This document shows, piece after piece, positions 6,501 through 60,318 of a DNA stretch of 64,000 nt. The DNA is from Escherichia coli (GTDB taxonomy: Bacteria > Pseudomonadota > Gammaproteobacteria > Enterobacterales > Enterobacteriaceae). The stretch lies in NCBI RefSeq assembly GCF_048403405.1, contig NZ_CP183129.1; one strand, given 5' to 3'. The position numbers were made by a program, and so were the translations under genes. Position 1 is the stretch's first letter; each line of letters opens with the position of its first letter. The notes beneath the pieces were generated by a model. That model did no database searches, had not been told where the DNA came from, and was given only the letters and a program-made list of their open reading frames with translations.

Positions 6501-6727
6501 CTTTCCTCACTCCTTAAGTTAGTCGCTTTCATTCAGAACATTTCTTCTGTCGGGCATCACTATACTCCTGATGGCGTATTGTTCTAAAAAGTTCCTGTAA
6601 AGAGTGTGAATATTCAGAATATATAAAGATACATACACTGGTTTTTCAGGCGTTATTGCGCTGAATAAGTGTTTTTATGGAACTTATTGGAATCATCCCG
6701 CGCACTGCGCGGGATGAGGGGGAGGGA

Positions 6728-7699
6728 TTAACGATCGCGTTGAACAGCAATGTGCGCGAGGCCGATGAGTGCTTCTCGCCACGGGGTGTCCGGGAGCACC
6801 TGTAACGCTGCGATGGCTTTGTCTGCTTCTTCCTCGGCACGCTGACGCGTCCATTCAAGAGATCCACAAGCGTTCATTGCTTCCAGAACCGGTTCCAGAA
6901 GATGGCGACCGTTACCCTGTTCGATGGCGGTACGAATCATCTGTGCCTGTTCTGGTGTGCCATGATGCATTGCATGCAGCAGCGGCAGCGTCGGTTTACC
7001 TTCGTTCAGATCGTCGCCGACGTTTTTACCTAACTGTTCGCCATCGGCATTGTAATCGAGTAAATCGTCGATCAACTGGAAAGCAGTGCCGAGATAGCGC
7101 CCATAATCCTGCAGGCCTTTCTCCTCCTCCGGCGTACAGCCAGCCAGAATCCCGGAACACTGCGCGGCAGCCTCAAACAGACGCGCGGTTTTGCTATAGA
7201 TAACGCGCATGTAGTTTTCTTCAGTGATGTCCGGATCGTTAACGTTCATCAGTTGCAGAACTTCACCTTCTGCGATGACGTTTACGGCTTCTGACATGAC
7301 TTCCAGCACTTTGAGCGAGCCGAGGCTGGTCATCATCTGGAACGCGCGGGTATAAATAAAATCGCCTACCAGCACGCTGGCGGCATTGCCAAATGCGGCG
7401 TTGGCGGTAGCTTTACCCCTGCGCATATCTGATTCATCCACAACGTCGTCGTGCAGCAGAGTCGCCGTGTGGATAAACTCGATCAGGGCAGCAATGGTGA
7501 CATGCGCATTTCCCTCATAGCCAACAGCTCGTGCAGCCAGTACAGCAATCATCGGACGAATACGTTTACCGCCGCCGCTGACGATGTAATAGCCTAACTG
7601 ATTGATCAGTTGGACGTCGGAATTAAGCTGCTCAAGGATTGCCGCATTAACACCCGCCATATCTTGCGCGGTTAACTCATTGATTTTTTCTAAATTCAT
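6728..7699 (-). CDS. ispB: Octaprenyl diphosphate synthase IspB
   Basis: 323-aa ORF with trans-prenyltransferase motifs DDVVD and DDLLD. Confidence 0.96.
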   Translation of the reverse strand: MNLEKINELTAQDMAGVNAAILEQLNSDVQLINQLGYYIVSGGGKRIRPMIAVLAARAVGYEGNAHVTIAALIEFIHTATLLHDDVVDESDMRRGKATANAAFGNAASVLVGDFIYTRAFQMMTSLGSLKVLEVMSEAVNVIAEGEVLQLMNVNDPDITEENYMRVIYSKTARLFEAAAQCSGILAGCTPEEEKGLQDYGRYLGTAFQLIDDLLDYNADGEQLGKNVGDDLNEGKPTLPLLHAMHHGTPEQAQMIRTAIEQGNGRHLLEPVLEAMNACGSLEWTRQRAEEEADKAIAALQVLPDTPWREALIGLAHIAVQRDR

Positions 7700-7856
7700 C
7701 GCAAAAGCCGGGCTTTTCGCCCCGATTACCTTACTGTGAACAAAGGCAACTTAGGGTTTATGGTTAGGAATATAGGGTGATTGTACTGAAAAAATGGCAC
7801 AGATAAACGTTACCGTACAAGTTGTGTTTTTTTTCTTCGTGTATTGACTGTAGCAC

Positions 7857-7885
7857 TTGTCAAAGGCGTGCGTTTTGCGTAATAT
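7857..7885 (+). promoter_or_regulatory. Candidate sigma70 promoter of rplU-rpmA (-35 TTGTCA, 17-bp spacer, -10 TAATAT)
   Basis: TTGTCA at 7857-7862 and TAATAT at 7880-7885, about 70 bp upstream of the rplU ATG. Confidence 0.45.
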
Positions 7886-7921
7886 TCGCGCCCTATTGTG
7901 AATATTTATAGCGCACTCTGA

Positions 7922-8547
<626 letters not shown>

Positions 8548-8575
8548 GTTTTTCGCGTCCCGGTAACGGATGAAA

Positions 8576-8602
8576 GCCCCGCAACACGTTGCGGGGCTTT
8601 TT
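8576..8602 (+). terminator. Intrinsic terminator after rpmA
   Basis: GC hairpin GCCCCGCAAC / GTTGCGGGGC followed by TTTTT. Confidence 0.7.
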
Positions 8603-8673
8603 ACATTCGATAACCGGTAAAAATGCGCATGGTGCGACGTTAATTCGCAAATGCGCTTTGCAGGGAATACGGT

Positions 8674-9639
8674 ATGAAGCAGCAGGCAGGCATTGGCATT
8701 CTTTTGGCGCTCACCACAGCAATTTGCTGGGGGGCGTTGCCAATCGCAATGAAGCAGGTGCTGGAGGTGATGGAACCTCCGACAATCGTGTTTTACCGTT
8801 TCTTGATGGCGAGTATTGGCCTTGGTGCCATTCTTGCGGTGAAGAAGAGGTTGCCGCCATTACGCGTGTTTCGTAAGCCACGCTGGTTGATTTTGTTGGC
8901 AGTGGCGACCGCCGGGCTGTTTGGTAACTTCATCCTGTTCAGCTCATCCTTGCAATACCTGAGTCCGACCGCTTCGCAGGTGATTGGGCAACTCTCGCCA
9001 GTTGGCATGATGGTTGCCAGCGTATTTATCCTGAAAGAGAAAATGCGCAGCACTCAGGTTGTAGGGGCATTGATGCTCCTGAGCGGTCTGGTGATGTTTT
9101 TTAACACCAGTCTGGTTGAGATATTTACAAAGCTCACCGATTACACCTGGGGAGTTATCTTTGGGGTCGGTGCGGCGACGGTTTGGGTGAGTTATGGCGT
9201 GGCGCAAAAGGTTTTATTGCGTCGGCTGGCCTCACCGCAGATCCTGTTTTTACTGTACACTTTATGTACAATTGCGCTCTTCCCTCTGGCAAAGCCTGGA
9301 GTGATAGCGCAGCTTAGCCACTGGCAGCTCGCATGTTTAATTTTTTGCGGACTGAATACCTTGGTAGGATATGGCGCCCTGGCGGAAGCGATGGCTCGCT
9401 GGCAGGCAGCGCAGGTGAGCGCGATCATCACGCTCACCCCACTGTTTACGCTGTTTTTTTCAGATCTTTTATCACTGGCCTGGCCCGATTTCTTCGCCAG
9501 ACCGATGTTAAACCTTTTAGGTTATCTCGGTGCGTTTGTCGTGGTTGCGGGCGCGATGTATTCCGCCATTGGTCATCGTATTTGGGGCGGATTACGTAAG
9601 CATACAACGGTGGTATCGCAACCCCGCGCAGGCGAATGA
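8674..9639 (+). CDS. yhbE: EamA/DMT-family inner membrane transporter YhbE
   Basis: 321-aa polytopic membrane ORF in the conserved position between rpmA and obgE. Confidence 0.9.
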   Translation: MKQQAGIGILLALTTAICWGALPIAMKQVLEVMEPPTIVFYRFLMASIGLGAILAVKKRLPPLRVFRKPRWLILLAVATAGLFGNFILFSSSLQYLSPTASQVIGQLSPVGMMVASVFILKEKMRSTQVVGALMLLSGLVMFFNTSLVEIFTKLTDYTWGVIFGVGAATVWVSYGVAQKVLLRRLASPQILFLLYTLCTIALFPLAKPGVIAQLSHWQLACLIFCGLNTLVGYGALAEAMARWQAAQVSAIITLTPLFTLFFSDLLSLAWPDFFARPMLNLLGYLGAFVVVAGAMYSAIGHRIWGGLRKHTTVVSQPRAGE

Positions 9640-10827
<1,188 letters not shown>

Positions 10828-10833
10828 TCAGCA

Positions 10834-10865
10834 AAACCCCGGCCATGCGCCGGGGTTTCTTTTTG
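10834..10865. terminator. Bidirectional intrinsic terminator between convergent obgE and dacB
   Basis: Hairpin CCCCGGC-CATGC-GCCGGGG flanked by an A-run upstream and a T-run downstream. Confidence 0.7.
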
Positions 10866-10866
10866 A

Positions 10867-12300
10867 CTAATTGTTCTGATAAATATCTTTGTACAAACGG
10901 CTTTCAAAACGCACTAACGGAATACGGCGATTACGCTGATCCGCGGGTTCTACTGCATAGCCGGAAAGATATTGCACAAACGCCATTCGTTGCCCGCTCG
11001 CCGTGGTAATGAATCCCGCCAGGTTATATACCCCCTGCAACGAGCCGGTTTTCGCTGAGACTTTGCCATCCACGCCCGCCTGATGCAGACCTGCACGGTA
11101 CTGCAAAGAGCCGTCATAGCCCGCCAGCGGCAGCATAGAGATAAAGTTAAGTTCATTGTCGTGTTGGGCTATGTATTGCAGCACCTGCATCATGGTGGCG
11201 GGGGCAATCAGGTTATGCCGCGAAAGCCCTGAACCATCGGCAATAATGGTGTTACCAATATCGACACCGGCTTGCTGGCGCAGGATCTGACGCACGGCGT
11301 CCGACCCGGCCCGCCATGTTCCAGGCACATTGAAGCGCGCATGGCCGATCATGCGGAAAACCGTATCGGCAATCATGTTGTCCGACTTTTTCAGCATAAT
11401 CTTAAGCAGATCGTGCAGCGGGGCCGACTGTTTACTGGCAACTACCGCTCCAGGTTCGTTAACCTGCGTCTGACGCAGCAGTGTTCCGCTCCAGGTGATA
11501 CCTGCCTGTTTTAACTCATCTTTCAGAATTGCTCCGGCATAGCTGGCTCCATCCTGCACGGCAAAAGCCAACGGGAGCGGCTCAGAACGTTGTGGCAGGC
11601 ATCCGGTCAGCGTAAAGCGGTTCAGGTCGCCTGGCACCACATCCAGCTCGCAATATTGCGCTTCGGCAGAACCACGGGGGAGGGTGCGTACCTGGCTGAA
11701 CATCGTAACGGGGTAATAAGATGCCACGCGTATAAAAGCCATATCACCAGGTTTTGGGGCACTGTAGAGCGAGACGGAGAAACAGTTGCGGTCAACTATG
11801 GCGGCAGCAGGCGGAGCGCTAAAGCATTGTGTCATGTCATTCCATGGCCAGCCGGGGGCTTTATCGTGGCTGGCGAAAATGGAGGTATCTATCAACACAT
11901 TGCCATCGATTTGGTTGACGCCAGATTTTTTCAAAGTCGCGACCATATTGCGAATATCCTGACGTTTTAACGTCGGATCGGCACCAAATCGCGCCACTAA
12001 GTCACCCTTAAGTACGCCGTTTTCCACATTACCTTTGGTTTCAAGCGTCGTGGTAAAACGAAAATCGGGGCCGAGTTGAATCAACGCCGCCAGTGCAGTA
12101 ATCACTTTCTGCGTACTGGCGGGCAGCGCCATCTGCTGACTGTGGTAATCAATAGCGGGGGCCGACGCGCCGACTTTTTGCACCATCAGGGCAAGGTTGG
12201 CACCAGCGGGGAGTTGAGTAATGTACTCATCAACATTTGCGGCCTGAATACTGAACGCTATACAGCTGGTCAATCCGATGATAAATCTGGAAAATCGCAT
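10867..12300 (-). CDS. dacB: D-alanyl-D-alanine carboxypeptidase/endopeptidase PBP4
   Basis: 477-aa ORF with signal peptide and STQK active-site motif (ASTQKVITALAA). Confidence 0.96.
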   Translation of the reverse strand: MRFSRFIIGLTSCIAFSIQAANVDEYITQLPAGANLALMVQKVGASAPAIDYHSQQMALPASTQKVITALAALIQLGPDFRFTTTLETKGNVENGVLKGDLVARFGADPTLKRQDIRNMVATLKKSGVNQIDGNVLIDTSIFASHDKAPGWPWNDMTQCFSAPPAAAIVDRNCFSVSLYSAPKPGDMAFIRVASYYPVTMFSQVRTLPRGSAEAQYCELDVVPGDLNRFTLTGCLPQRSEPLPLAFAVQDGASYAGAILKDELKQAGITWSGTLLRQTQVNEPGAVVASKQSAPLHDLLKIMLKKSDNMIADTVFRMIGHARFNVPGTWRAGSDAVRQILRQQAGVDIGNTIIADGSGLSRHNLIAPATMMQVLQYIAQHDNELNFISMLPLAGYDGSLQYRAGLHQAGVDGKVSAKTGSLQGVYNLAGFITTASGQRMAFVQYLSGYAVEPADQRNRRIPLVRFESRLYKDIYQNN

Positions 12301-12419
12301 AATCTCGCGCTAACAACCTGGAATCGAGCCGTCATACTACGGCGCAACGCCCTATAAAGTAAACGATGACCCTTCGGGAACTTCAGGGTAAAATGACTAT
12401 CAAAATGTGAATTGTAGCT

Positions 12420-12453
12420 GACCTGGGACTTGTACCCGGGTCGGTATTTTTTT
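12420..12453 (+). terminator. Intrinsic terminator in the greA leader (3' end of the GraL leader RNA)
   Basis: Imperfect hairpin GACCTGGG-ACTTGTA-CCCGGGTC followed by GGTATTTTTTT, about 95 bp upstream of the greA ATG; consistent with the known terminated greA leader transcript. Confidence 0.5.
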
Positions 12454-12547
12454 GCTTCTGGTCCCGGTGAGGAGTTATGCCGGGCAGGCCGAACAGCCGG
12501 GGTGGGTGAAGACTTGCCCCATCAGGAATATTCAAGAGGTATAACAA

Positions 12548-13024
<477 letters not shown>

Positions 13025-13068
13025 GAATTACCCAATACTCAAGATGTTGATGTATTGTAAAGAAAGGA

Positions 13069-13091
13069 AAAAGGCCGCTATGCGGCCTTTT
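13069..13091. terminator. Bidirectional terminator between convergent greA and yhbY
   Basis: AAAAGGCCGC-TA-TGCGGCCTTTT palindrome with flanking A and T runs. Confidence 0.7.
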
Positions 13092-13179
13092 ATCAACGAA
13101 CAGAGCGTGGCATTTTGCTCTCCTGCCTGCGGAAAACCCCTCGTTTTACACAGCAAATGTGTGTAACTTTAGGATAATC

Positions 13180-13473
13180 TTAGCGTGGCAGCGAGATTTT
13201 ACGTTCTTTAGTTGGGCGATAAAGCACCAGCGTTTTACCGATGACCTGTACATTACAGGCGCCGGTTTCGCGCACGATAGCTTCCACGATCAAGGTTTTA
13301 GTTTCGCGATCTTCGGTGGCGATTTTCACCTTGATGAGTTCATGGTGCTCTAACGCTTGTTCAATCTCGGCCAGCACCCCTTCGGTCAAACCATTACTGC
13401 CAAGCAGAACAACTGGCTTGAGCGGATGTGCCAGACCTTTCAGGTGCTGTTTTTGTTTAGTACTCAGATTCAT
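13180..13473 (-). CDS. yhbY: RNA-binding protein YhbY (CRS1/YhbY CRM domain)
   Basis: 97-aa ORF MNLSTKQKQHLKGLAHPLKPVVLLGSNGLTEGVLAEIEQALEHHELIKVKIA... Confidence 0.95.
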   Translation of the reverse strand: MNLSTKQKQHLKGLAHPLKPVVLLGSNGLTEGVLAEIEQALEHHELIKVKIATEDRETKTLIVEAIVRETGACNVQVIGKTLVLYRPTKERKISLPR

Positions 13474-13598
13474 CGTATTTTTTGCTTACGTTGGGATTGA
13501 AAACGGATCATTCTACCGCCATCTCCCATATATCACCAAATAGGCGCGTAAAAATTTACGCAATTGGTTACGATGAGTTATCCCAATGGGAAAGTTAA

Positions 13599-14228
13599 AT
13601 GACAGGTAAGAAGCGTTCTGCCAGCTCCAGCCGCTGGCTTCAGGAACACTTTAGCGATAAATATGTTCAACAGGCACAGAAAAAGGGGTTACGTTCCCGT
13701 GCCTGGTTTAAACTTGATGAAATACAGCAAAGTGACAAACTCTTTAAACCGGGAATGACGGTTGTCGACCTTGGTGCTGCGCCGGGTGGTTGGTCACAAT
13801 ATGTGGTCACCCAAATTGGCGGCAAAGGCCGTATCATCGCTTGCGATCTTTTACCTATGGATCCTATCGTTGGTGTGGACTTTCTTCAGGGCGATTTTCG
13901 TGATGAACTGGTGATGAAAGCACTGCTGGAGCGCGTTGGCGACAGCAAAGTCCAGGTTGTCATGTCCGATATGGCACCAAACATGAGCGGAACACCGGCG
14001 GTGGATATCCCCCGTGCCATGTATCTGGTGGAACTGGCGCTAGAAATGTGTCGTGATGTATTAGCGCCAGGTGGCAGTTTTGTAGTGAAGGTGTTCCAGG
14101 GCGAAGGTTTCGATGAGTATCTAAGGGAAATTCGCTCCCTGTTTACGAAGGTCAAAGTTCGTAAGCCGGACTCTTCTCGCGCACGTTCGCGGGAAGTGTA
14201 TATTGTAGCGACCGGGCGTAAACCCTAA
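13599..14228 (+). CDS. rlmE: 23S rRNA (U2552) 2'-O-methyltransferase RlmE (FtsJ/RrmJ)
   Basis: 209-aa ORF with SAM-binding motif [13 protein letters not shown]. Confidence 0.96.
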
Positions 14229-14327
14229 CCGGGAGATTTCAGACGAAAGTTTGAAAGATGCTGGATATAGAGTATCCTGACGCTGTTTTTAACACAGTTG
14301 TAATAAGAGGTTAATCCCTTGAGTGAC

Positions 14328-16262
14328 ATGGCGAAAAACCTAATACTCTGGCTGGTCATTGCCGTTGTGCTGATGTCAGTATTCCAGAGCTTTGGGCCCA
14401 GCGAGTCTAATGGCCGTAAGGTGGATTACTCTACCTTCCTACAAGAGGTCAATAACGACCAGGTTCGTGAAGCGCGTATCAACGGACGTGAAATCAACGT
14501 TACCAAGAAAGATAGTAACCGTTATACCACTTACATTCCGGTTCAGGATCCGAAATTACTGGATAACCTGTTGACCAAGAACGTCAAGGTTGTCGGTGAA
14601 CCGCCTGAAGAACCAAGCCTGCTGGCTTCTATCTTCATCTCCTGGTTCCCGATGCTGTTGCTGATTGGTGTCTGGATCTTCTTCATGCGTCAAATGCAGG
14701 GCGGCGGTGGCAAAGGTGCCATGTCGTTTGGTAAGAGCAAAGCGCGCATGCTGACGGAAGATCAGATCAAAACGACCTTTGCTGACGTTGCGGGCTGCGA
14801 CGAAGCAAAAGAAGAAGTTGCTGAACTGGTTGAGTATCTGCGCGAGCCGAGCCGCTTCCAGAAACTCGGCGGTAAGATCCCGAAAGGCGTCCTGATGGTC
14901 GGTCCTCCGGGTACCGGTAAAACGCTGCTGGCGAAAGCGATTGCAGGCGAAGCGAAAGTTCCGTTCTTTACTATCTCCGGTTCTGACTTCGTCGAAATGT
15001 TCGTCGGTGTGGGTGCATCCCGTGTTCGTGACATGTTCGAACAGGCGAAGAAAGCGGCACCGTGTATCATCTTTATCGATGAAATCGACGCCGTAGGCCG
15101 CCAGCGTGGCGCAGGCCTGGGCGGTGGTCACGATGAACGTGAACAGACTCTGAACCAGATGCTGGTTGAGATGGATGGCTTCGAAGGTAACGAAGGTATC
15201 ATCGTTATCGCCGCGACTAACCGTCCGGACGTTCTTGACCCGGCGCTGCTGCGTCCTGGCCGTTTCGACCGTCAGGTTGTGGTTGGCTTGCCAGATGTTC
15301 GCGGTCGTGAGCAGATCCTGAAAGTTCACATGCGTCGCGTACCATTGGCACCCGATATCGACGCGGCAATCATTGCCCGTGGTACTCCTGGTTTCTCCGG
15401 TGCTGACCTGGCGAACCTGGTGAACGAAGCGGCACTGTTCGCTGCTCGTGGCAACAAACGCGTTGTGTCGATGGTTGAGTTCGAGAAAGCGAAAGACAAA
15501 ATCATGATGGGTGCGGAACGTCGCTCCATGGTGATGACGGAAGCGCAGAAAGAATCGACGGCTTACCACGAAGCGGGTCACGCGATTATCGGTCGCCTGG
15601 TGCCGGAACACGATCCGGTGCACAAAGTGACGATTATCCCACGCGGTCGTGCGCTGGGTGTAACTTTCTTCTTGCCTGAGGGCGACGCAATCAGCGCCAG
15701 CCGTCAGAAACTGGAAAGCCAGATTTCTACGCTGTACGGTGGTCGTCTGGCAGAAGAGATCATCTACGGGCCGGAACATGTTTCTACCGGTGCGTCCAAC
15801 GATATTAAAGTTGCGACCAACCTGGCACGTAACATGGTGACTCAGTGGGGCTTCTCTGAGAAATTGGGGCCACTGCTGTACGCGGAAGAAGAAGGTGAAG
15901 TGTTCCTCGGCCGTAGCGTAGCGAAAGCGAAACATATGTCTGATGAAACTGCACGTATCATCGACCAGGAAGTGAAAGCACTGATTGAGCGTAACTATAA
16001 TCGTGCGCGTCAGCTTCTGACCGACAATATGGATATTCTGCATGCGATGAAAGATGCTCTCATGAAATATGAGACTATCGACGCACCGCAGATTGATGAC
16101 CTGATGGCACGTCGCGATGTACGTCCGCCAGCGGGCTGGGAAGAACCAGGCGCTTCTAACAATTCTGGCGACAATGGTAGTCCAAAGGCTCCTCGTCCGG
16201 TTGATGAACCGCGTACGCCGAACCCGGGTAACACCATGTCAGAGCAGTTAGGCGACAAATAA
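14328..16262 (+). CDS. ftsH: ATP-dependent zinc metalloprotease FtsH (HflB)
   Basis: 644 aa from ATG 14328 ([19 protein letters not shown]...), AAA Walker A GPPGTGKT, zinc site HEAGHA; the ORF-track start at 14319 is an in-frame TTG 3 codons upstream. Confidence 0.96.
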
Positions 16263-47918: not shown

Positions 47919-48782
47919 ATGAAACAACACCAATCGGCGGATAATTCTCAGGGCCAGCTTTACATTGTACCGACGCCAATCGGCAATCTGGCGGATATCA
48001 CCCAGCGTGCGTTGGAGGTATTACAGGCCGTTGATCTGATTGCCGCCGAGGATACGCGTCACACCGGTTTATTGCTGCAACATTTTGGGATTAATGCTCG
48101 GTTGTTTGCGCTGCACGACCATAACGAACAACAAAAAGCCGAAACGCTGCTGGCGAAGCTGCAAGAGGGGCAAAACATTGCGCTGGTTTCCGATGCCGGA
48201 ACGCCGCTAATTAACGATCCTGGCTACCATCTGGTGCGTACCTGCCGTGAAGCGGGGATTCGCGTGGTGCCGCTACCCGGGCCGTGTGCTGCTATCACTG
48301 CGTTAAGCGCCGCGGGTTTACCATCCGATCGTTTTTGTTATGAAGGCTTTTTACCTGCCAAATCAAAAGGCCGCCGTGATGCGCTAAAAGCCATTGAAGC
48401 GGAGCCGCGCACGCTGATTTTTTATGAATCTACCCACCGTCTGTTAGATAGCCTGGAAGATATCGTTGCGGTATTAGGCGAATCCCGCTACGTCGTTCTG
48501 GCGCGTGAGCTGACCAAAACCTGGGAAACCATTCACGGCGCGCCCGTTGGCGAGCTGCTGGCGTGGGTCAAAGAAGATGAAAACCGTCGCAAAGGCGAAA
48601 TGGTGCTGATTGTCGAAGGCCATAAAGCGCAGGAAGATGACCTGCCTGCTGATGCCCTGCGCACGCTGGCGCTGCTACAGGCAGAACTGCCGCTGAAAAA
48701 AGCGGCGGCGCTGGCAGCAGAAATTCACGGCGTGAAGAAAAATGCGCTGTATAAGTATGCACTGGAGCAGCAGGGAGAGTGA
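47919..48782 (+). CDS. rsmI: 16S rRNA (C1402) 2'-O-methyltransferase RsmI
   Basis: 287-aa [56 protein letters not shown]... (tetrapyrrole methylase fold). Confidence 0.95.
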
Positions 48783-48831
48783 TTACAGGCGTCGCAGCAG
48801 GAATAGCGTTGCAACGCCTGTAGCAGGCGAG

Positions 48832-49599
48832 TTAACGACGACACATCTCATCAATCATGCATGTGAAATAGTTATGCAGCCATAAAAATGAAGCCGGGAT
48901 AGCGGTAGAGACTTTAGCCGTGAGAAAACGTTCTGTCGCATCCTGCTTTCCTTCGCCAGTCACCAGTAACAAAACTTCGCGGGCATTGAGAATATCCTTC
49001 AGGCCTAAGGTGATCCCACGAGTCACGGGACGGCCCGCGGTTTTTAACATCTCATGTTGCTGTGTTCTGGCATCAAGTTGACTGATATGGCAGGCCGGTT
49101 GCAGGCTTTCTCCCGGTTCGTTCAGCCCAAGATGACCGTTTTTCCCCAACCCGAGAACGCATAAATCCAGACCGCCTTTGCGCGCAATCAGGTGCGTTAC
49201 CCGTTCGCACTCTGTCTCATTTATCTCTTCGGAGCGAAAGCTGATGAGCTGGTCTTCACGCAGCCCCAGCGGCTGCACGATATGCTGTTGCAGGAAAGTT
49301 TCGCAGGTACCAGGCATAGTTAATGGCAGATCCACCCATTCGTCGAGCTTCACGAAGGTGAGCTGGCTGACATCAACCTGCTGCTGGTGGATTTTTTCTA
49401 CCAGATAATGATACGTCAGTAATGGCGTGGCTCCGGTCGCCAGGCAAATCACTGCATCCGGTTTGCTACGGATCATGGCCAATAAATATTCGCTGGCACG
49501 TTCACTTAACGCCATATAGTTTTCAACTTGCTGAAGGGTTTGCACAGGATGAAATTCCTTAAGTAAAGAGGCACCACCAGACGCAGTGCCTCGTTCCAT
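48832..49599 (-). CDS. agaI: Putative galactosamine-6-phosphate deaminase/isomerase AgaI (NagB family)
   Basis: 255-aa ORF with NagB-like fold motifs (ICLATGATP, KLDEWV), last gene of the aga operon. Confidence 0.9.
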   Translation of the reverse strand: MERGTASGGASLLKEFHPVQTLQQVENYMALSERASEYLLAMIRSKPDAVICLATGATPLLTYHYLVEKIHQQQVDVSQLTFVKLDEWVDLPLTMPGTCETFLQQHIVQPLGLREDQLISFRSEEINETECERVTHLIARKGGLDLCVLGLGKNGHLGLNEPGESLQPACHISQLDARTQQHEMLKTAGRPVTRGITLGLKDILNAREVLLLVTGEGKQDATERFLTAKVSTAIPASFLWLHNYFTCMIDEMCRR

Positions 49600-54243: not shown

Positions 54244-55377
54244 TCAAATCGAAGCTAATTGACCCTGAATCCAGATTTGTTGCACATGCAGCCCGCTATC
54301 CAGCGCAACGACGCTGGCGCGTTTGCCCGGTTTAAGCGATCCCAGAACACCATCAACACCCAGCATTCGCGCCGGATGCAGCGACGCCATATGGATGGCT
54401 TCCGCAGGCGTTACGCCCGTTAACTCGACCATGTTGCGCACTGCTGCATCGACAGATAGCGTACTGCCCGCCAGCCCACCGGACGCGGTACGGACAACGC
54501 CACCGTGCATCTGCACTTCTTCGCCACATAACGTATAGCGACCATCCGGCATCCCAGCTGCCTGCATCGCGTCGGTGATCAGTACGATTCTCTCTTTCGC
54601 ACAGCAACAACACAGCGACATCGCCGCCGGATGCACATGATGACCATCGGCTATCAGTTCCAGCCAGGCGCGCTTGTCCGTTAATCCCGCGCCAACCATT
54701 CCCGGTTCGCGGTGATGTAAACCTGTCATCCCGTTATAGCAATGCACCAGGCCGTCGGCACCAGCATCAAATGCGGCGCGGGTTTGTTGCCAGGTCGCCG
54801 CGCTATGCCCCAGCATCACCCTTACGTTTTGCTGTTTAAGATGGCGGATGGCCTGCAATGCCCCTTCTTTTTCCGGTGCCAGCGCTACCACGCGCAAGGT
54901 GTGCTGAGAAACGGCAATCAATTGATCCAGCTCGGCAATTTCCAGCTCGCGAAACAGCTCCGGCGGATGCGCGCCTTTATTCTGCGGCGTGAAGTATGGT
55001 CCTTCGAGATAACTCCCCAGCACTTGCGCACCAGGTCCGTCGCGTTGGCAACGTTGAGCAATACGTTTCAGCGCCGCATGAATGGTATTAAGCGGCGCGG
55101 TTACGGTGGTCGGTAACCAACTGCCGACACCTTCGCGTGCTTTGTGCATTGCCAGCTTGTCGAGCACATCCGGCGCGTCATCCATTACATCAACGCCCGC
55201 ACCACCGTGTACATGGGTGTCGATGTAAGCGGGGCAGAGCAGTTCCGCATCGCGTTCAGTCACGCCCACTGGAATCGGTTCGATTGCTGCGATTACACCG
55301 TCAGCAATACGCAACTGATGGTCATCGAGCCATCCCTCTTCAGTCAGCAGCCTTCTGGCGCGCAAAACGGGTGTCAT
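54244..55377 (-). CDS. agaA: N-acetylgalactosamine-6-phosphate deacetylase AgaA (full length)
   Basis: 377 aa from ATG at 55375-55377 (MTPVLRARRLLTEEGWLDDHQLRIADGVIAAIEPIPVGV...), NagA-family amidohydrolase; ATG overlaps the agaF stop (ATGA); N-terminus is intact. Confidence 0.93.
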   Translation of the reverse strand: MTPVLRARRLLTEEGWLDDHQLRIADGVIAAIEPIPVGVTERDAELLCPAYIDTHVHGGAGVDVMDDAPDVLDKLAMHKAREGVGSWLPTTVTAPLNTIHAALKRIAQRCQRDGPGAQVLGSYLEGPYFTPQNKGAHPPELFRELEIAELDQLIAVSQHTLRVVALAPEKEGALQAIRHLKQQNVRVMLGHSAATWQQTRAAFDAGADGLVHCYNGMTGLHHREPGMVGAGLTDKRAWLELIADGHHVHPAAMSLCCCCAKERIVLITDAMQAAGMPDGRYTLCGEEVQMHGGVVRTASGGLAGSTLSVDAAVRNMVELTGVTPAEAIHMASLHPARMLGVDGVLGSLKPGKRASVVALDSGLHVQQIWIQGQLASI

Positions 55378-55808
55378 ATTCCTTCCTCGACCGGACATTC
55401 TTCATGGCAGCGGCCTAACTCGTCCACCAAACTGGTCAGCCCACGGTGTCCACACTCCAGCGCCTGCACACGGAACTCTTCACCGCTTAACCCTTCGCGC
55501 TCCAGCACCATCTCCAGTAGCAGTTGCAAATTGGTGCCGGTGATCACTTCACAGCCCGGTTTTTGCATCGCCAGCGTTGAAGCTACGCGAAACGGCGTGC
55601 CGCCCAGCAAATCTGTCAGAAAAACAATGCCGTCTTCACAATCCAGTTGGGCGAAGGCCTCTTCAAGCTGCGATGTAAGCAGCGCGGTGCTTGAGGTTTC
55701 CGGAAAATCGATGGCGATAAACTGCGATTGCTCGCCGAGGATTTGCTTCATTGCTTTTTCCATGCCGCTGGCAAATCCGCCATGCCCTGTCAAAATAATA
55801 CTTAACAT
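55374..55808 (-). CDS. agaF: PTS N-acetylgalactosamine-specific EIIA component AgaF
   Basis: 144-aa ORF MLSIILTGHGGFASGMEKAMKQILGEQSQFIAIDFPE..., mannose-family IIA. Confidence 0.93.
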   Translation of the reverse strand: MLSIILTGHGGFASGMEKAMKQILGEQSQFIAIDFPETSSTALLTSQLEEAFAQLDCEDGIVFLTDLLGGTPFRVASTLAMQKPGCEVITGTNLQLLLEMVLEREGLSGEEFRVQALECGHRGLTSLVDELGRCHEECPVEEGI

Positions 55809-55825
55809 CTAATACCTCATTGTAT

Positions 55826-56704
55826 TTAAAGGAAATGACAGAATTTACCGACGATACCGAGAACCACGGTAACTGCAATCAGGCGCAGCGGACTCCAGCC
55901 GCGGCGTACCAGCCAGAACATGGTCAGGGTGTAGACCAGCGGTAAGAAGGCAGGCATCAGTTTGTCGATAACATCAGCCTGTAACTTAACCACTGCATCG
56001 CCAGCGGTGATTTCCAGCGTGGTGCTTAAACGAACATAGGTTGCTACCAGCGCGCCGATTACCGTCATCCCAACGATTGACGCAGCATGGCCGACTTTTT
56101 TGGTATTCGCTTTAATGAGTGGAATCGCCGCCACGCCCATGCGGTAAGCATAATGCGCCAGACCAAAACGCAGCCCCAGGTGTACCACGTTAAACAGCAC
56201 AATAAAGACGACTGCGCCAAGAATGGAGCCTTGCAATGCCAGACTGGCTCCAATCCCGCCACAAATCGGCAGTAGCGTTAGCCAGAACATTGCATCGCCA
56301 ATCCCGCCAAGCGGCGCACCGACGGCAATTTTGGTGCTCTGAATACTGTTAACGTCCTGCTTAGAACGCTCCATCGCAAGGATAATGCCGATAACAAACG
56401 TCACCAGAAACGGATGGGTATTGAAGAAACCCATATGCCCTTTCATGGCGCGCGCCAGGTCGCGTTTATTAGTGTGGATCTTTTTCAGAGCAGGCAGCAG
56501 ACCGTACAACCAGCCAGAAGCCTGCATACGTTCGTAGTTAAAAGACGCTTGTAACAGCATGGAACGCCAGGCGACGCGGTTGATATCTTTTTTTGTCAGC
56601 TCCGCGCCAATACTCTGATCTTCATACACGTTTTCATTGACGCCTGTCAGCAGTGTTTCTTCGTTTTCACTGACGTTCGGCAGGGTGGTTTGATTAGATG
56701 CCAT
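55826..56704 (-). CDS. agaE: PTS N-acetylgalactosamine-specific EIID component AgaE
   Basis: 292 aa from ATG at 56702-56704 (MASNQTTLPNVSENEETLLTG...), mannose-family IID paralogous to AgaD; overlaps the agaW 3' end by 11 nt; the ORF-track start at 56710 is a TTG two codons upstream. Confidence 0.9.
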   Translation of the reverse strand: MASNQTTLPNVSENEETLLTGVNENVYEDQSIGAELTKKDINRVAWRSMLLQASFNYERMQASGWLYGLLPALKKIHTNKRDLARAMKGHMGFFNTHPFLVTFVIGIILAMERSKQDVNSIQSTKIAVGAPLGGIGDAMFWLTLLPICGGIGASLALQGSILGAVVFIVLFNVVHLGLRFGLAHYAYRMGVAAIPLIKANTKKVGHAASIVGMTVIGALVATYVRLSTTLEITAGDAVVKLQADVIDKLMPAFLPLVYTLTMFWLVRRGWSPLRLIAVTVVLGIVGKFCHFL

Positions 56705-57473
56705 CTTCAAATTCCTCTTTCTGTGCCGCAGGTTGAGTCGGTTCAGGAGATTTACGCAGCAGGTCGATCAGCGCCATCGCCAGCGCGGCGGCAGCAATAG
56801 CCAGCACCGGTAACTTGAGCCAGGCTGCGGCAACAAAGCCCAGGATGAAGTAGGGGATGTAGACGTTTTTCATCATGATTTTCAGCAGCACGGCAAAACC
56901 GATTGCTGGCATGATGCCGCCCGCGACGCCGAGGCCGTCGATTAATCGTTGCGGCAGGACATCAATGATGGTTTTGGCATGTTCTGCGCCGAAGTAGATA
57001 GGCAGGAAAGCGCAGAGAAAATAGAAAGTGCCGAGTGCCAGCAGTGCCAGATAGTTCACGCGTTCAATGCCGCGAGTATCGGCGTTCTCTGCCATCCGGT
57101 CACAGCGGGACATTACGCCAGACATCACCGAGAACAGGAAGGTAATCCCCATCTGTACTGCGACAGCGAAAGGTACGGCGACACCGACCGCGACATCGGG
57201 TTTCACGCCGGTAGTAATGGCAAACGCCGTGCCGACGATAGTACCGATAATCACGTTAGGCGGCTGTGCACCCGCCAGCGGGGCCAGCCCCATCCACACC
57301 AGTTCCAGCGTACCGCCGGTTAAAATACCGGTATGCAGATCGCCAAGTACCAGCCCGACCAACGGGCCGAGGACCACCGGGCGGTGCATATGGGTTAGGC
57401 CGTTAAACATATCCAGGCCAGCGATAAAGGCGATAATGCCCAACGCGAATGCCTGCAACAGACTGATTTCCAT
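56694..57473 (-). CDS. agaW: PTS N-acetylgalactosamine-specific EIIC component AgaW (full length)
   Basis: 259-aa polytopic ORF MEISLLQAFALGIIAFIAGLDMFNGLTHMHRPVVLGPLVG..., intact C-terminus ending EEFEDGI. Confidence 0.93.
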   Translation of the reverse strand: MEISLLQAFALGIIAFIAGLDMFNGLTHMHRPVVLGPLVGLVLGDLHTGILTGGTLELVWMGLAPLAGAQPPNVIIGTIVGTAFAITTGVKPDVAVGVAVPFAVAVQMGITFLFSVMSGVMSRCDRMAENADTRGIERVNYLALLALGTFYFLCAFLPIYFGAEHAKTIIDVLPQRLIDGLGVAGGIMPAIGFAVLLKIMMKNVYIPYFILGFVAAAWLKLPVLAIAAAALAMALIDLLRKSPEPTQPAAQKEEFEDGI

Positions 57474-57483
57474 GATGAATCCC

Positions 57484-57957
57484 TCAAAGTAATTTAAAGA
57501 GGTCCACAGCAGGCTCTGTCGGGACGCCCTGAACGAAGCATTCCACCCCAGCGGCTTTCAGGTCGTTAAATGCTGCGATATCGCCCGCATCTACAGAAAC
57601 CGTTTTGGCGATTTGTTGCTTGCCATTGGCGTAGTGCATATTGCCAACGTTAATGCGATTCACCGGAACGCCACCTTTCACCAGCGTCAGGAAATCGGCA
57701 GGTGTTTTACAAACCAGCAGGATTTTCTGTCGATCGGCGGCGCGATGAATGTTGTCGATGACTTTTTGCAGCGTCCAGAAACGTACGGCGATCCCTTCTG
57801 CCAGTACCATTTCCATCAGGTTTTGTTGTACCGGATCTTCGGCAACCTCATCGTTGGCTACCAGCACCAGATTTGCCCCCGCAAATCCGACCCACTGAAC
57901 GCCGACCTGACCGTGAATCAAGCGTTCATCAATCCGGCTTAAAACAATATTTGGCAT
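57484..57957 (-). CDS. agaV: PTS N-acetylgalactosamine-specific EIIB component AgaV
   Basis: 157 aa from ATG at 57955-57957 (MPNIVLSRIDERLIHGQVGVQWVGFAGANLVLV...); ORF-track start 57993 is an upstream extension. Confidence 0.93.
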   Translation of the reverse strand: MPNIVLSRIDERLIHGQVGVQWVGFAGANLVLVANDEVAEDPVQQNLMEMVLAEGIAVRFWTLQKVIDNIHRAADRQKILLVCKTPADFLTLVKGGVPVNRINVGNMHYANGKQQIAKTVSVDAGDIAAFNDLKAAGVECFVQGVPTEPAVDLFKLL

Positions 57958-57979
57958 AGCGTGTTCCTCTTTGTTTTGC

Positions 57980-59260
57980 TTATTGGCCTTCACAGGCTGT
58001 GTGGTACTGCGCCAGGATGTCCTGAATATGGTTGATAATGAGTTCCCGTGGCGTTGGCTGCAGCTCGCCGGAGCGAACTTTCACGTATTGCAGCGGCAAA
58101 TACTGGCTGATGAGCGGTAGCGGAATTGGTGAATCCGCCAGATTACGAACCAGATGAGCGAAAGCGTCATCAATCTGGCTGTCCGGCCAGTAATAGCGCA
58201 CGCGATCCGAGTAGCTATAACCACGTGCCAGACGACGCGCGTTGCCGTCACCGTGGTAGTGGCTTTGCCAGTATTCCGGGCGGTCGAGCATCACGTTTTC
58301 CAGTACCTGACGCAGACCGGAACAGGCTTTCGCTGGCACCAGTTCTTCTTCAATCGCCGCCAGAGAGAACAGAGCTTCACGCAGGGCGAAGGTCAGCGCC
58401 GGGCCAACTTTCAGAATGGCAAAGTGGTCAATCACCAGCTGGCGCAGCGATTGCGGCGTTTGATAATCGGTAGAGTGCGCTTCGAAAATCAGCGTTTCGT
58501 AGTTTTCGACCATCTGGCTTAAGGCGGTCGCTTTAGCTGGCTGATAATCAATAACGTTGGTGTGATCGAATTCGACGCCGGGTTGTACCACCAGAGCAAT
58601 GATGCGTGGCCAGATGGCACTCAGACCTTGCTTTTCAAAGGCGTGACGATGGGCTTCCAGCGTGGCGCGGGCGGCATCTGGCGTGGTGACCGCCAGCTCG
58701 CTTAAGGTTTCATGCGCGCCGCCAGGTACCGGCACTTCGGTACCAATGACATACTCCAAATCGGCTTCGCCAAAGTGTTCACGACAGGTTTCTTCCGCCA
58801 CTTTCGCCAGACGTGCGGCGCGTTCAGCCACGATGTCATCAGTTAAGGGAATTGGATCGTCCTGACAGGACATGCTGCAATCAAGGTGAATTTTTTTGAA
58901 TCCTGCCGCCACGTAGCTTTTAATCAAATCATCGGCATTGGCCATTGCCTGAGCGGCTGGCAGGTTTTGCCAGCGGTTTGGCCCCAGATGGTCGCCTCCC
59001 AAAATCAACGCATCCTGTGGGAAATTCAACGAGTCGGCGAGCTGACAAACAAAGCCGCGAAAATCGGCGGGCGTCATTCCGGTATAACCGCCGAACTGGT
59101 CCACCTGATTGGAGGTTGCTTCAATCAGTAACGGCGTTTGGTTTGCACTGGCGTAGCGGATTGCAGCTTCCAGCACCAGCGGATGTGCGGAACAAACGGC
59201 ATAAATCCCATTTGTTTTACCCTCTTTGTGCTGTCTCACCATTTCTGTCAGATGTTTCAC
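57980..59260 (-). CDS. kbaZ: Tagatose-bisphosphate aldolase non-catalytic subunit KbaZ
   Basis: 426-aa [40 protein letters not shown]..., apparent GTG start. Confidence 0.94.
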
Positions 59261-59280
59261 TTTCCTCTCCAGTTCAGATT

Positions 59281-59500
59281 ACTGCGATATTAATCTTTCG
59301 TTTTGTTTCAGTTGATACTGCGCCATGGTGAGATAAAAATAAAACGAAAGATAATGGTTTTCTGATCTGATTCACAAAAGAAACATAATGAAAGCCACTG
59401 AAACGAGAGTAGCTTGCGCCAATGGGTAAGGTGGGCTTGCATTTGCTTAATAGAAAGGCGTTAATAGGCAAAACGAAATGAAACGAAAGTTTTACGAAAG
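59281..59500. promoter_or_regulatory. Divergent kbaZ/agaR promoter region with multiple CTTTC/GAAAG repeats (candidate AgaR operators)
   Basis: AATCTTTCGTTTTGTTTCAG (59293-59312), AAAACGAAAG (59341-59350), AAACGAGAG (59401-59409) and AAACGAAATGAAACGAAAGTTTTACGAAAGG (59471-59500) in AT-rich DNA between divergent kbaZ and agaR. Confidence 0.55.
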
Positions 59501-59508
59501 GACTTACT

Positions 59509-60318
59509 ATGAGTAATACCGACGCTTCAGGTGAGAAGCGAATGACAGGCACCAGCGAGCGACGAGAACAGATCATTCAGCGTCTGCGACAGCAAGGGAG
59601 TGTGCAGGTTAACGATCTGTCGGCATTGTATGGCGTATCTACTGTGACGATCCGCAACGATCTGGCGTTTCTGGAAAAGCAGGGGATCGCTGTGCGTGCC
59701 TATGGCGGCGCGTTGATCTGCGATAGCACGACGCCGTCAGTCGAGCCATCAGTGGAAGATAAAAGCGCGCTGAACACCGCAATGAAACGCAGCGTTGCGA
59801 AAGCTGCCGTTGAGTTGATTCAGCCAGGTCATCGGGTAATCCTCGATTCCGGGACCACCACTTTTGAGATTGCTCGTCTGATGCGCAAGCACACTGACGT
59901 AATTGCGATGACCAACGGTATGAACGTGGCTAATGCGTTGCTGGAAGCGGAAGGCGTTGAGCTGCTGATGACCGGCGGGCATTTGCGCCGTCAGTCGCAA
60001 TCTTTTTACGGCGATCAGGCTGAGCAATCGCTGCAAAATTACCACTTCGATATGCTGTTTCTTGGTGTAGATGCGATCGATCTGGAGCGCGGCGTCAGCA
60101 CACATAATGAAGATGAAGCTCGTTTAAACCGCCGGATGTGCGAAGTTGCGGAACGGATCATCGTGGTCACCGATTCCAGTAAGTTCAATCGTTCCAGTTT
60201 ACATAAGATCATTGATACTCAACGTATCGACATGATCATTGTTGATGAAGGCATTCCTGCGGATAGTCTGGAAGGGCTGCGAAAGGCTGGGGTTGAAGTG
60301 ATTCTGGTCGGGGAGTGA
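59509..60318 (+). CDS. agaR: DeoR-family transcriptional repressor AgaR
   Basis: 269-aa ORF with N-terminal HTH ([42 protein letters not shown]) and DeoR C-terminal sugar-phosphate sensor domain. Confidence 0.95.

Follow-up and report, generated by a model that had tools for sequence, protein, structure and literature searches.

The Yra system is one of the cryptic chaperone-usher operons of Escherichia coli K-12. In that strain yraHIJK lie between agaI and rsmI/yraL, which is the same chromosomal site as the one considered here, where the DNA under study carries none of the four genes. Such an absence follows a published pattern (PMC6896753): Gonzalez-Alba et al. (2019) reported that the E/B1/A lineage gained yra, which D and F/G/B2 lack, and expression of yra has been seen only in A/B1 isolates (PMC4128348). 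The lack of yra outside the E/B1/A lineage is thus already known from these two studies, and our observation is real but ordinary. Both treat yra as a matter of gene presence or absence. What is added here is the anatomy of the junction, namely an exact exchange of 99 bp for 5,484 bp that alters the C-termini of both flanking proteins, a spacer whose conservation reaches E. albertii, and three further alleles at the same site. None of this detail would surprise a specialist.

Integration hotspots between conserved core genes are a concept of comparative genomics in E. coli genomes. Like them, the agaI/rsmI site holds varied accessory cargoes at a fixed position between core genes, apparently exchanged by flanking homology. 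Unlike them, it is very small (0.05-5.5 kb) and has no tRNA, integrase or prophage. A second point of comparison is the canonical bidirectional intrinsic terminator, which consists of an A-tract, a hairpin and a U-tract. The spacer between agaI and rsmI is alike in position and in its GC-rich stem, but has neither an A-tract nor a U-tract on either side.

A third class is that of the hairpin-only, overlapping bidirectional terminators of Ju et al. (2019), which we cite as described in a preprint (10.1101/2022.10.23.513370). Its authors state that the bidirectional terminators which SEnd-seq located between converging genes of E. coli "do not resemble intrinsic terminators"; their RNA hairpin pauses polymerases coming from both sides, and head-on and trailing collisions then release the polymerases. 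The class is already described, and our spacer shares with it a single hairpin between convergent genes that can be formed by both strands, the absence of intrinsic-terminator features, and a position right after both stop codons. The difference is that K-12, the strain studied there, has yra at this place.

The DNA that we analysed is a stretch of 64,000 nt from E. coli (NZ_CP183129.1), referred to below as the window. In it, rsmI, encoding the 16S rRNA C1402 2'-O-methyltransferase, and agaI, encoding galactosamine-6-phosphate isomerase/deaminase, are convergent, intact and full length, with their stop codons 49 bp apart (Table 1). The RsmI proteins of the window and of K-12 share 99.65% amino acid identity. 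The junction is 100% identical to that of many RefSeq E. coli chromosomes in which rsmI and agaI are annotated. The list of open reading frames and the annotation of one of these chromosomes, strain 7/2, agree exactly with the coordinates and the 49-bp spacing given in a first-pass annotation of the window.

The same annotation had proposed that yraHIJK are absent and that K-12 has the order agaI-yraH-yraI-yraJ-yraK-rsmI, and both statements hold. When K-12 proteins were searched by tblastn against the whole 64-kb window, agaS-kbaY-agaBCDI, rsmI, lpoA, yraN, diaA and dolP were matched, and YraH, YraI, YraJ and YraK had no match. In strain WCHEC000837, whose junction is identical to that of the window, a yra search returned only generic usher similarity elsewhere, at 8% coverage. 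In MG1655 the genes follow the order given above, and the agaI and rsmI stops are separated by 5,449 bp, so the two genes do not abut there. Further along the window (54244-60318), open reading frames stand in the order and approximate sizes of a complete aga/gam cluster (agaA, agaF, agaE, agaW, agaV, kbaZ, agaR), and these genes are annotated in that order in an ST617 genome with an identical junction. The agaW and agaA of K-12 are pseudogene fragments.

Table 1. Features of the agaI/rsmI junction, in window coordinates.
Feature	Coordinates	Strand	Description	Basis
rsmI	47919..48782	+	287 aa; C-terminus ...EQQGE*; stop TGA at 48780-48782	ORF list, RefSeq annotation of identical locus, homolog C-termini
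agaI	48832..49599	-	255 aa; tail ...LWLHNYFTCMIDEMCRR*; stop TAA read from 48834 to 48832	ORF list, RefSeq annotation of identical junction
Intergenic spacer of yra-free haplotype	48783..48831	.	49 bp, no ORF	Sequence and ORF list
Haplotype-specific segment	48776..48874	.	99 bp: last 7 nt of rsmI, spacer, last 43 nt of agaI	BLASTN breakpoints against K-12, side-by-side borders
Hairpin 5' arm	48784..48798	.	TACAGGCGTCGCAGC	Repeat search, RNA folds, pair counts
Hairpin loop	48799..48807	.	9 nt, AGGAATAGC; first 8 nt invariant in 9/9 alleles	Allele alignment
Hairpin 3' arm	48808..48822	.	GTTGCAACGCCTGTA	Repeat search, RNA folds, pair counts
Perfect 12-nt palindrome	48806..48817	.	GCGTTGCAACGC; overlaps loop end and 3' arm; needs T at 48809	Repeat search

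We compared the junction with that of K-12. BLASTN homology ends at 48775 on the rsmI side and restarts at 48875 on the agaI side, which places the breakpoints within the 3' coding ends of both genes. The K-12 counterpart of the segment in between (48776-48874) is 5,484 bp long (NC_000913.3, 3286995-3292478) and carries yraHIJK. The two haplotypes therefore differ by a replacement, 99 bp against 5,484 bp, and not by a simple insertion or deletion. RsmI ends in ...EQQGE* in the window and in ...EQQG*, one residue shorter, in K-12, and AgaI ends in ...LWLHNYFTCMIDEMCRR in the window as against ...LWLHSNFICLINT in K-12. The window thus has the gene ends of the yra-free haplotype, RsmI ...QQGE* and AgaI ...DEMCRR*. 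The two AgaI tails are recognisably homologous, with F, C and I aligned, and the identity between the agaI genes is about 99% directly upstream of the breakpoint and drops to about one half in the final 8-9 codons (hand count of codons).

The GC content is 45% in the yra insert and 27% in the agaI-yraH intergenic region, compared with 51-53% in the flanks, and the K-12 agaI tail is AT-rich, as is the remaining yra insert. This tail contains an AT-rich motif, AAC TTT AyT TGy TTA, which is common to the yra haplotypes of K-12, E. whittamii and Escherichia sp. MOD1-EC7003 and absent from the empty haplotypes. The shared motif points to a single old insertion, the descendants of which may have diverged or been transferred. 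The gene content of the K-12 insert is yraHIJK alone, with no IS and no integrase. Of the hallmarks of a site-specific genomic island, neither direct repeats, nor an integrase, nor a tRNA target was found at agaI/rsmI: no tRNA genes lie near the site, and a search for direct and inverted repeats at the borders of the occupied site in K-12 gave a longest shared word of 7-8 nt against a shuffled mean of 7.7, that is, no excess over chance.

How the two haplotypes are distributed was examined in 5,426 complete E. coli genomes. The contiguous junction with the 49-bp hairpin spacer was present in 1,821 of them, and K-12-type yra DNA in 3,523, with at least 80% coverage in 3,264 and less than 80% in 259, many of these IS-disrupted. 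Three other contents were encountered at the site. A 2.4-kb segment with an MBL-fold hydrolase and a LysR regulator was seen in 64-65 of the 5,426 genomes, such as AH02 (6594-9007 of the locus) and the O145:H28 strain RM12581; an 851-bp segment with a RelE/ParE toxin and an HTH antitoxin in about 12, such as XJ34 (1501-2351 of the locus); and a divergent fimbrial operon like that of MOD1-EC7003 in two, one being 18KM2445. The first two account together for 77 genomes, and all three for about 79. Since the allele counts sum to 5,423 of 5,426, the states behave essentially as mutually exclusive alleles of a single site, at which E. coli has no fewer than five alternative contents. The presence/absence polymorphism put forward in the first-pass annotation is thus confirmed as a polymorphism of the population (1,821 against 3,523 genomes), but not as a two-state one, as there are at least five alleles and they differ by replacement.

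The MBL/LysR and toxin-antitoxin alleles keep the window-type gene ends, with exactly 48784-48830 replaced, and they have both border sequences in common, as if two cargoes had been set in one common frame. In O145:H28, the MBL/LysR allele adjoins a partial deletion of the aga cluster. The chaperone-usher operon of 18KM2445 and MOD1-EC7003 occupies the same site with 53-65% protein identity to YraHIJK; YraJ and the related usher UshC have been reported never to co-occur (Stubenrauch et al., PMC5717340). In the O157:H7 genomes sampled (F6294, Z1831), the annotation places an IS1203 (IS3-family) transposase inside the yra operon and lists no yraK, which makes it likely that the operon does not function in these genomes.

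To place these alleles in a wider context, one genome per species was scanned with the window AgaI, which yielded six loci. The arrangement of agaI, 49 bp and rsmI recurs in E. albertii, in Escherichia sp. E1V33 and in 'E. coli' E69, where the spacer is identical to that of the window at 48, 46 and 39 of the 49 positions, respectively. In Trabulsiella odontotermitis, agaI also abuts rsmI, across a 102-bp spacer with two inverted REP-like units. E. whittamii has yraHIJK at the junction, with 83-90% amino acid identity to K-12, and MOD1-EC7003 has its very divergent yra-like operon (10778-16167 of the locus, 53-65% amino acid identity). The yra operon of E. whittamii, together with the diverged one of MOD1-EC7003, implies that both states are old within the genus. 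The Trabulsiella spacer (10706-10807 of the locus; GCCGGATAAGGCG... / ...CGCTTATCCGGCCTAC) is unrelated to the Escherichia hairpin.

The end of RsmI also bears on polarity. The RsmI of Trabulsiella ends in QQG*, as in K-12, so this character is not free of homoplasy, and a polarity read from it with Trabulsiella alone was misleading; more genera resolved it. RsmI ends in QGE in several other enterobacterial genera, namely Siccibacter, Jejubacter and Scandinavium and two large clusters, where the end of the rsmI DNA reads ...CAGGGnGAGTrA. It follows that the rsmI end seen in the window is the ancestral one and that of K-12 is derived. In those genera rsmI converges on garD or another sugar cluster and not on agaI. 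In the contig that carries the RsmI named Siccibacter colletis and in one further locus, rsmI and garD converge directly and an aga cluster is absent, which means that the whole aga region is itself variable at the rsmI boundary.

The polarity rests on few outgroups, and these support the yra-free state as the presumably older one. The proposal of an ancestral empty site made in the first-pass annotation is supported by the spacers of E. albertii, E1V33 and E69, the adjacency in Trabulsiella, the QQGE* ends in other genera, the GC content of the insert and the published distribution (PMC6896753). Taken together, we consider it quite probable that 48783-48831 is the native spacer of the yra-free haplotype, an old Escherichia allele and not a scar of yraHIJK deletion. 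The yra operon may have been acquired by an Escherichia lineage in the distant past, at the extreme 3' end of agaI, and may later have been brought into the E/B1/A branch of E. coli. Junction alleles would then have been swapped between strains via homologous recombination in the flanking core genes.

ST617 belongs to clonal complex 10, which is that of K-12, and to phylogroup A, in which yra is normally present. A junction identical to that of the window occurs in strains that PMC6392093 lists as ST617. One strain listed there, WCHEC005784, is yra-free and differs from K-12 by 2.3% along all 40 kb of the locus that were fetched, giving a tract of at least 40 kb. A large recombination import probably removed yra from this strain, and the divergence suggests that the empty haplotype can return through homologous recombination over large tracts. 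The window itself shows about 1.8% divergence from K-12 across all 64 kb, and its first 25 kb have exact matches to only six genomes, including TUM14771 and MS 69-1.

The window junction might also be read as secondary loss: its lineage would once have had yraHIJK, and the 49 bp would be a healed deletion junction. The empty allele of ST617 strains, in a group where yra is the rule, speaks for this reading. Partial or IS-disrupted yra operons are indeed common, as the 259 of 3,523 carriers below 80% coverage attest, and real deletions occur at the locus. However, a true IS1-mediated deletion, that of strain EC25, looks different: it has a K-12-type agaI, 136 bp of yra leader, IS1 and a truncated mtr. 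At the window junction no IS, truncated gene or tRNA was found, both neighbours are full length, and 48776-48874 contain no yra-derived bases. Moreover, a deletion from the K-12 haplotype cannot recreate the QQGE* codon, the 14-codon AgaI tail and a spacer nearly identical to that of E. albertii, and the divergence of the ST617 locus from K-12 over at least 40 kb is that of an allele replacement, not of a deletion. Secondary loss is therefore largely refuted, and we regard it as very improbable. That the junction is not a deletion scar, as had been suggested at first pass, is upheld by these findings and by the chance-level repeats at the K-12 borders. The EC25 deletion runs from 136 bp downstream of agaI to the truncated mtr beside deaD, and yraHIJK, rsmI, lpoA, yraN, diaA and dolP are all unannotated in this stretch.

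We next describe the native spacer itself. It forms one imperfect hairpin over 39 of its 49 bp, with a 15-bp stem and a 9-nt loop, that begins 2 nt past the rsmI stop codon and finishes 9 nt short of the agaI stop codon. The underlying inverted repeat, ACAGGCGT (48785-48792) and ACGCCTGT (48814-48821), has arms that extend to 13-15 nt, and the stem in the window includes one C.A mismatch and one G.U pair. Nested repeats around a central palindrome had been described at first pass. The inverted repeat is real; the palindrome GCGTTGCAACGC, however, is neither central nor nested, and since it overlaps the 3' arm of the hairpin, the two structures compete as alternatives. The palindrome is also allele-specific, as most other alleles, including that of E. 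albertii, have C at 48809 and read GCGCTGCAACGC. Homology of GCGTTGCAACGC with the K-12 rsmI/yraK terminator hairpin (GCGTTGCG...CGCAACG) was considered and rejected, the shared core being about 7 nt, self-complementary and indistinguishable from chance.

The RNA of the window spacer is predicted to fold at -24.3 kcal/mol (z = -2.5) in the rsmI sense (+) and at -24.5 kcal/mol (z = -3.6) in the agaI sense (-), more stably than expected by chance. Other spacer alleles fold at -22 to -29 kcal/mol, with z from -3.9 to -6.6. The exception is the rsmI sense of the A32/MS198-1 allele, which has two uncompensated stem changes and for which another fold takes precedence over the hairpin (-14.9 kcal/mol, z = -0.65). 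In the nine alleles compared, the + strand keeps 12-15 of the 15 stem pairs and the - strand 14-15, and 10 stem pairs are invariant. Position 16/36 varies among alleles (C.A, U-A or U.G). The spacer of E69 has substitutions at 10 of 49 positions (20% divergence), yet all 15 pairs are retained, with one compensatory double change from G-C to A-U. We also tried to read the strand on which the hairpin acts from the asymmetry of G.U and C.A pairs, and rejected the approach, as two positions favour the agaI sense and two (48809 in the window allele and 16/36 in E69) the rsmI sense.

The E. albertii spacer differs from that of the window at 1 of 49 positions, compared with 67 of 258 four-fold sites in rsmI and agaI (binomial P = 7e-6), and divergence in the adjacent 150 nt of rsmI and agaI is normal. 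Against E1V33 and E69, the divergence of the window spacer is no lower than that of four-fold sites, and formal covariation statistics on the seven distinct alleles did not rise above shuffles. The hairpin could accordingly be without function, a palindrome present by chance or by hitch-hiking in a spacer that is short and neutral. The non-significant covariation score, the weakened stem of the common E. coli allele A32/MS198-1 and the fact that the MBL/LysR, toxin-antitoxin and yra alleles lack the hairpin would allow this. It is difficult to reconcile with a spacer that has diverged from E. albertii far less than four-fold sites, next to normally diverged gene ends, with the 15 of 15 pairs retained in E69 at 20% divergence, and with a loop whose first 8 nt are invariant in nine alleles. 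We judge a functionless hairpin to be rather unlikely.

Could the spacer instead be a REP/BIME-type repeat, or the attachment site of a mobile element that delivers the alternative cargoes? REP/BIME elements are likewise imperfect palindromes at gene 3' ends, and protection of mRNA 3' ends may plausibly be a shared role. In addition, at least five cargoes are found at exactly one position, and the Trabulsiella spacer is a pair of inverted REP-like units. These units, however, belong to Trabulsiella and not to the window, whose spacer has a longer stem, lacks the REP consensus and is single-copy: with up to 3 mismatches allowed, the inverted repeat occurs once in the 64-kb window (0 expected in shuffles). 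An Rfam search of the spacer at a permissive E-value returned only a meaningless snoRNA match (E = 4.5). There is also no integrase, tRNA or direct repeat, and the hairpin is absent from both borders of the occupied alleles, neither split nor duplicated, with no half of it retained at any such border. A repeat or attachment site is thus scarcely credible here, and we return to the spacer as a single-copy hairpin at the end of two converging genes.

The 3' flanks of the stem read GCAGGCGAGUUAAC / GCAGGCGAG on the + strand and AUCACUCUCCCUGC / AUCACUCUC on the - strand, with no U-run either way, and a scan of 48500-49100 for consensus promoters and terminators gave 0 sites. Because no U-tract follows the stem, the hairpin does not qualify as a canonical intrinsic terminator. 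A Rho-independent bidirectional terminator of the canonical kind, with a hairpin flanked by an A-tract and a U-tract, would nevertheless suit a stable GC-rich hairpin directly after both stop codons, and related junctions have such features. At the equivalent rsmI junction of Siccibacter there is a textbook A7-hairpin-T7 bidirectional terminator (7865-7925 of the contig bearing the RsmI named Siccibacter colletis), and in K-12 a hairpin followed by CTTCTTTT lies between rsmI and yraK. These two cases suggest that some terminator function is needed at this position. With the U-runs missing in GCAGGCGAGUUAAC and AUCACUCUCCCUGC, the consensus scan empty and a loop of 9 nt, the canonical form is unlikely for the window spacer.

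Judging from its sequence, the spacer would be at most a hairpin-only, collision-type terminator, and it fits the sequence-level description of hairpin-only bidirectional terminators between convergent genes. The hairpin probably marks the shared end of both transcripts. At the RNA level, it may serve as a common 3'-end element of the converging rsmI and agaI transcripts, pausing RNA polymerase from either side and so allowing hairpin-only, collision-type bidirectional termination, and/or shielding the transcript 3' ends against exonucleases; a role as a 3'-exonuclease barrier is equally compatible with the hairpin. Since agaI belongs to an inducible operon, convergent transcription, and hence polymerase collision, would be conditional at this junction, which is a further difference from the class of Ju et al. 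(2019). The hairpin is a convenient natural test of the collision model, because the aga operon, one of the two that converge, can be switched on and off.

A broader proposal combines two statements. First, selection would have maintained the 49-bp element as a bidirectional terminator, or a stabiliser of 3' ends, that has no U-tract and predates the split of E. coli and E. albertii. Second, the junction would be a cassette site that swaps intergenic modules (the hairpin, two divergent Yra-type operons, MBL-hydrolase with LysR, and RelE/ParE) purely by homologous recombination in the flanking core, including the return of the empty allele to clones of phylogroup A, for example ST617. We put forward this combination tentatively and think it possible but doubtful as a whole.

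The significance of the locus goes little beyond bookkeeping. For annotators, missing yraHIJK represents a normal phylogroup-linked allele, not an assembly error or a recent deletion, and the C-termini of AgaI and RsmI are haplotype-specific. The locus is also a clear natural example of how alternative cargoes, here at least five, are exchanged between convergent genes with no mobile-element machinery.

Repeats shared by the rsmI end and the hairpin were also noted. A direct repeat of GCAGCAGG at an offset of 27 nt (48767 / 48794) was considered as a tandem duplication and set aside, as the 63% identity over 27 nt (hand count) is unconvincing. In the repeat search, GCAGCAGGGAGAG at the 3' end of rsmI (48767-48779, + strand) recurred as GCAGCAGGAATAG at 48794-48806 within the hairpin, with 11 of 13 positions matching, which may reflect either an ancient duplication of the end of rsmI or chance.
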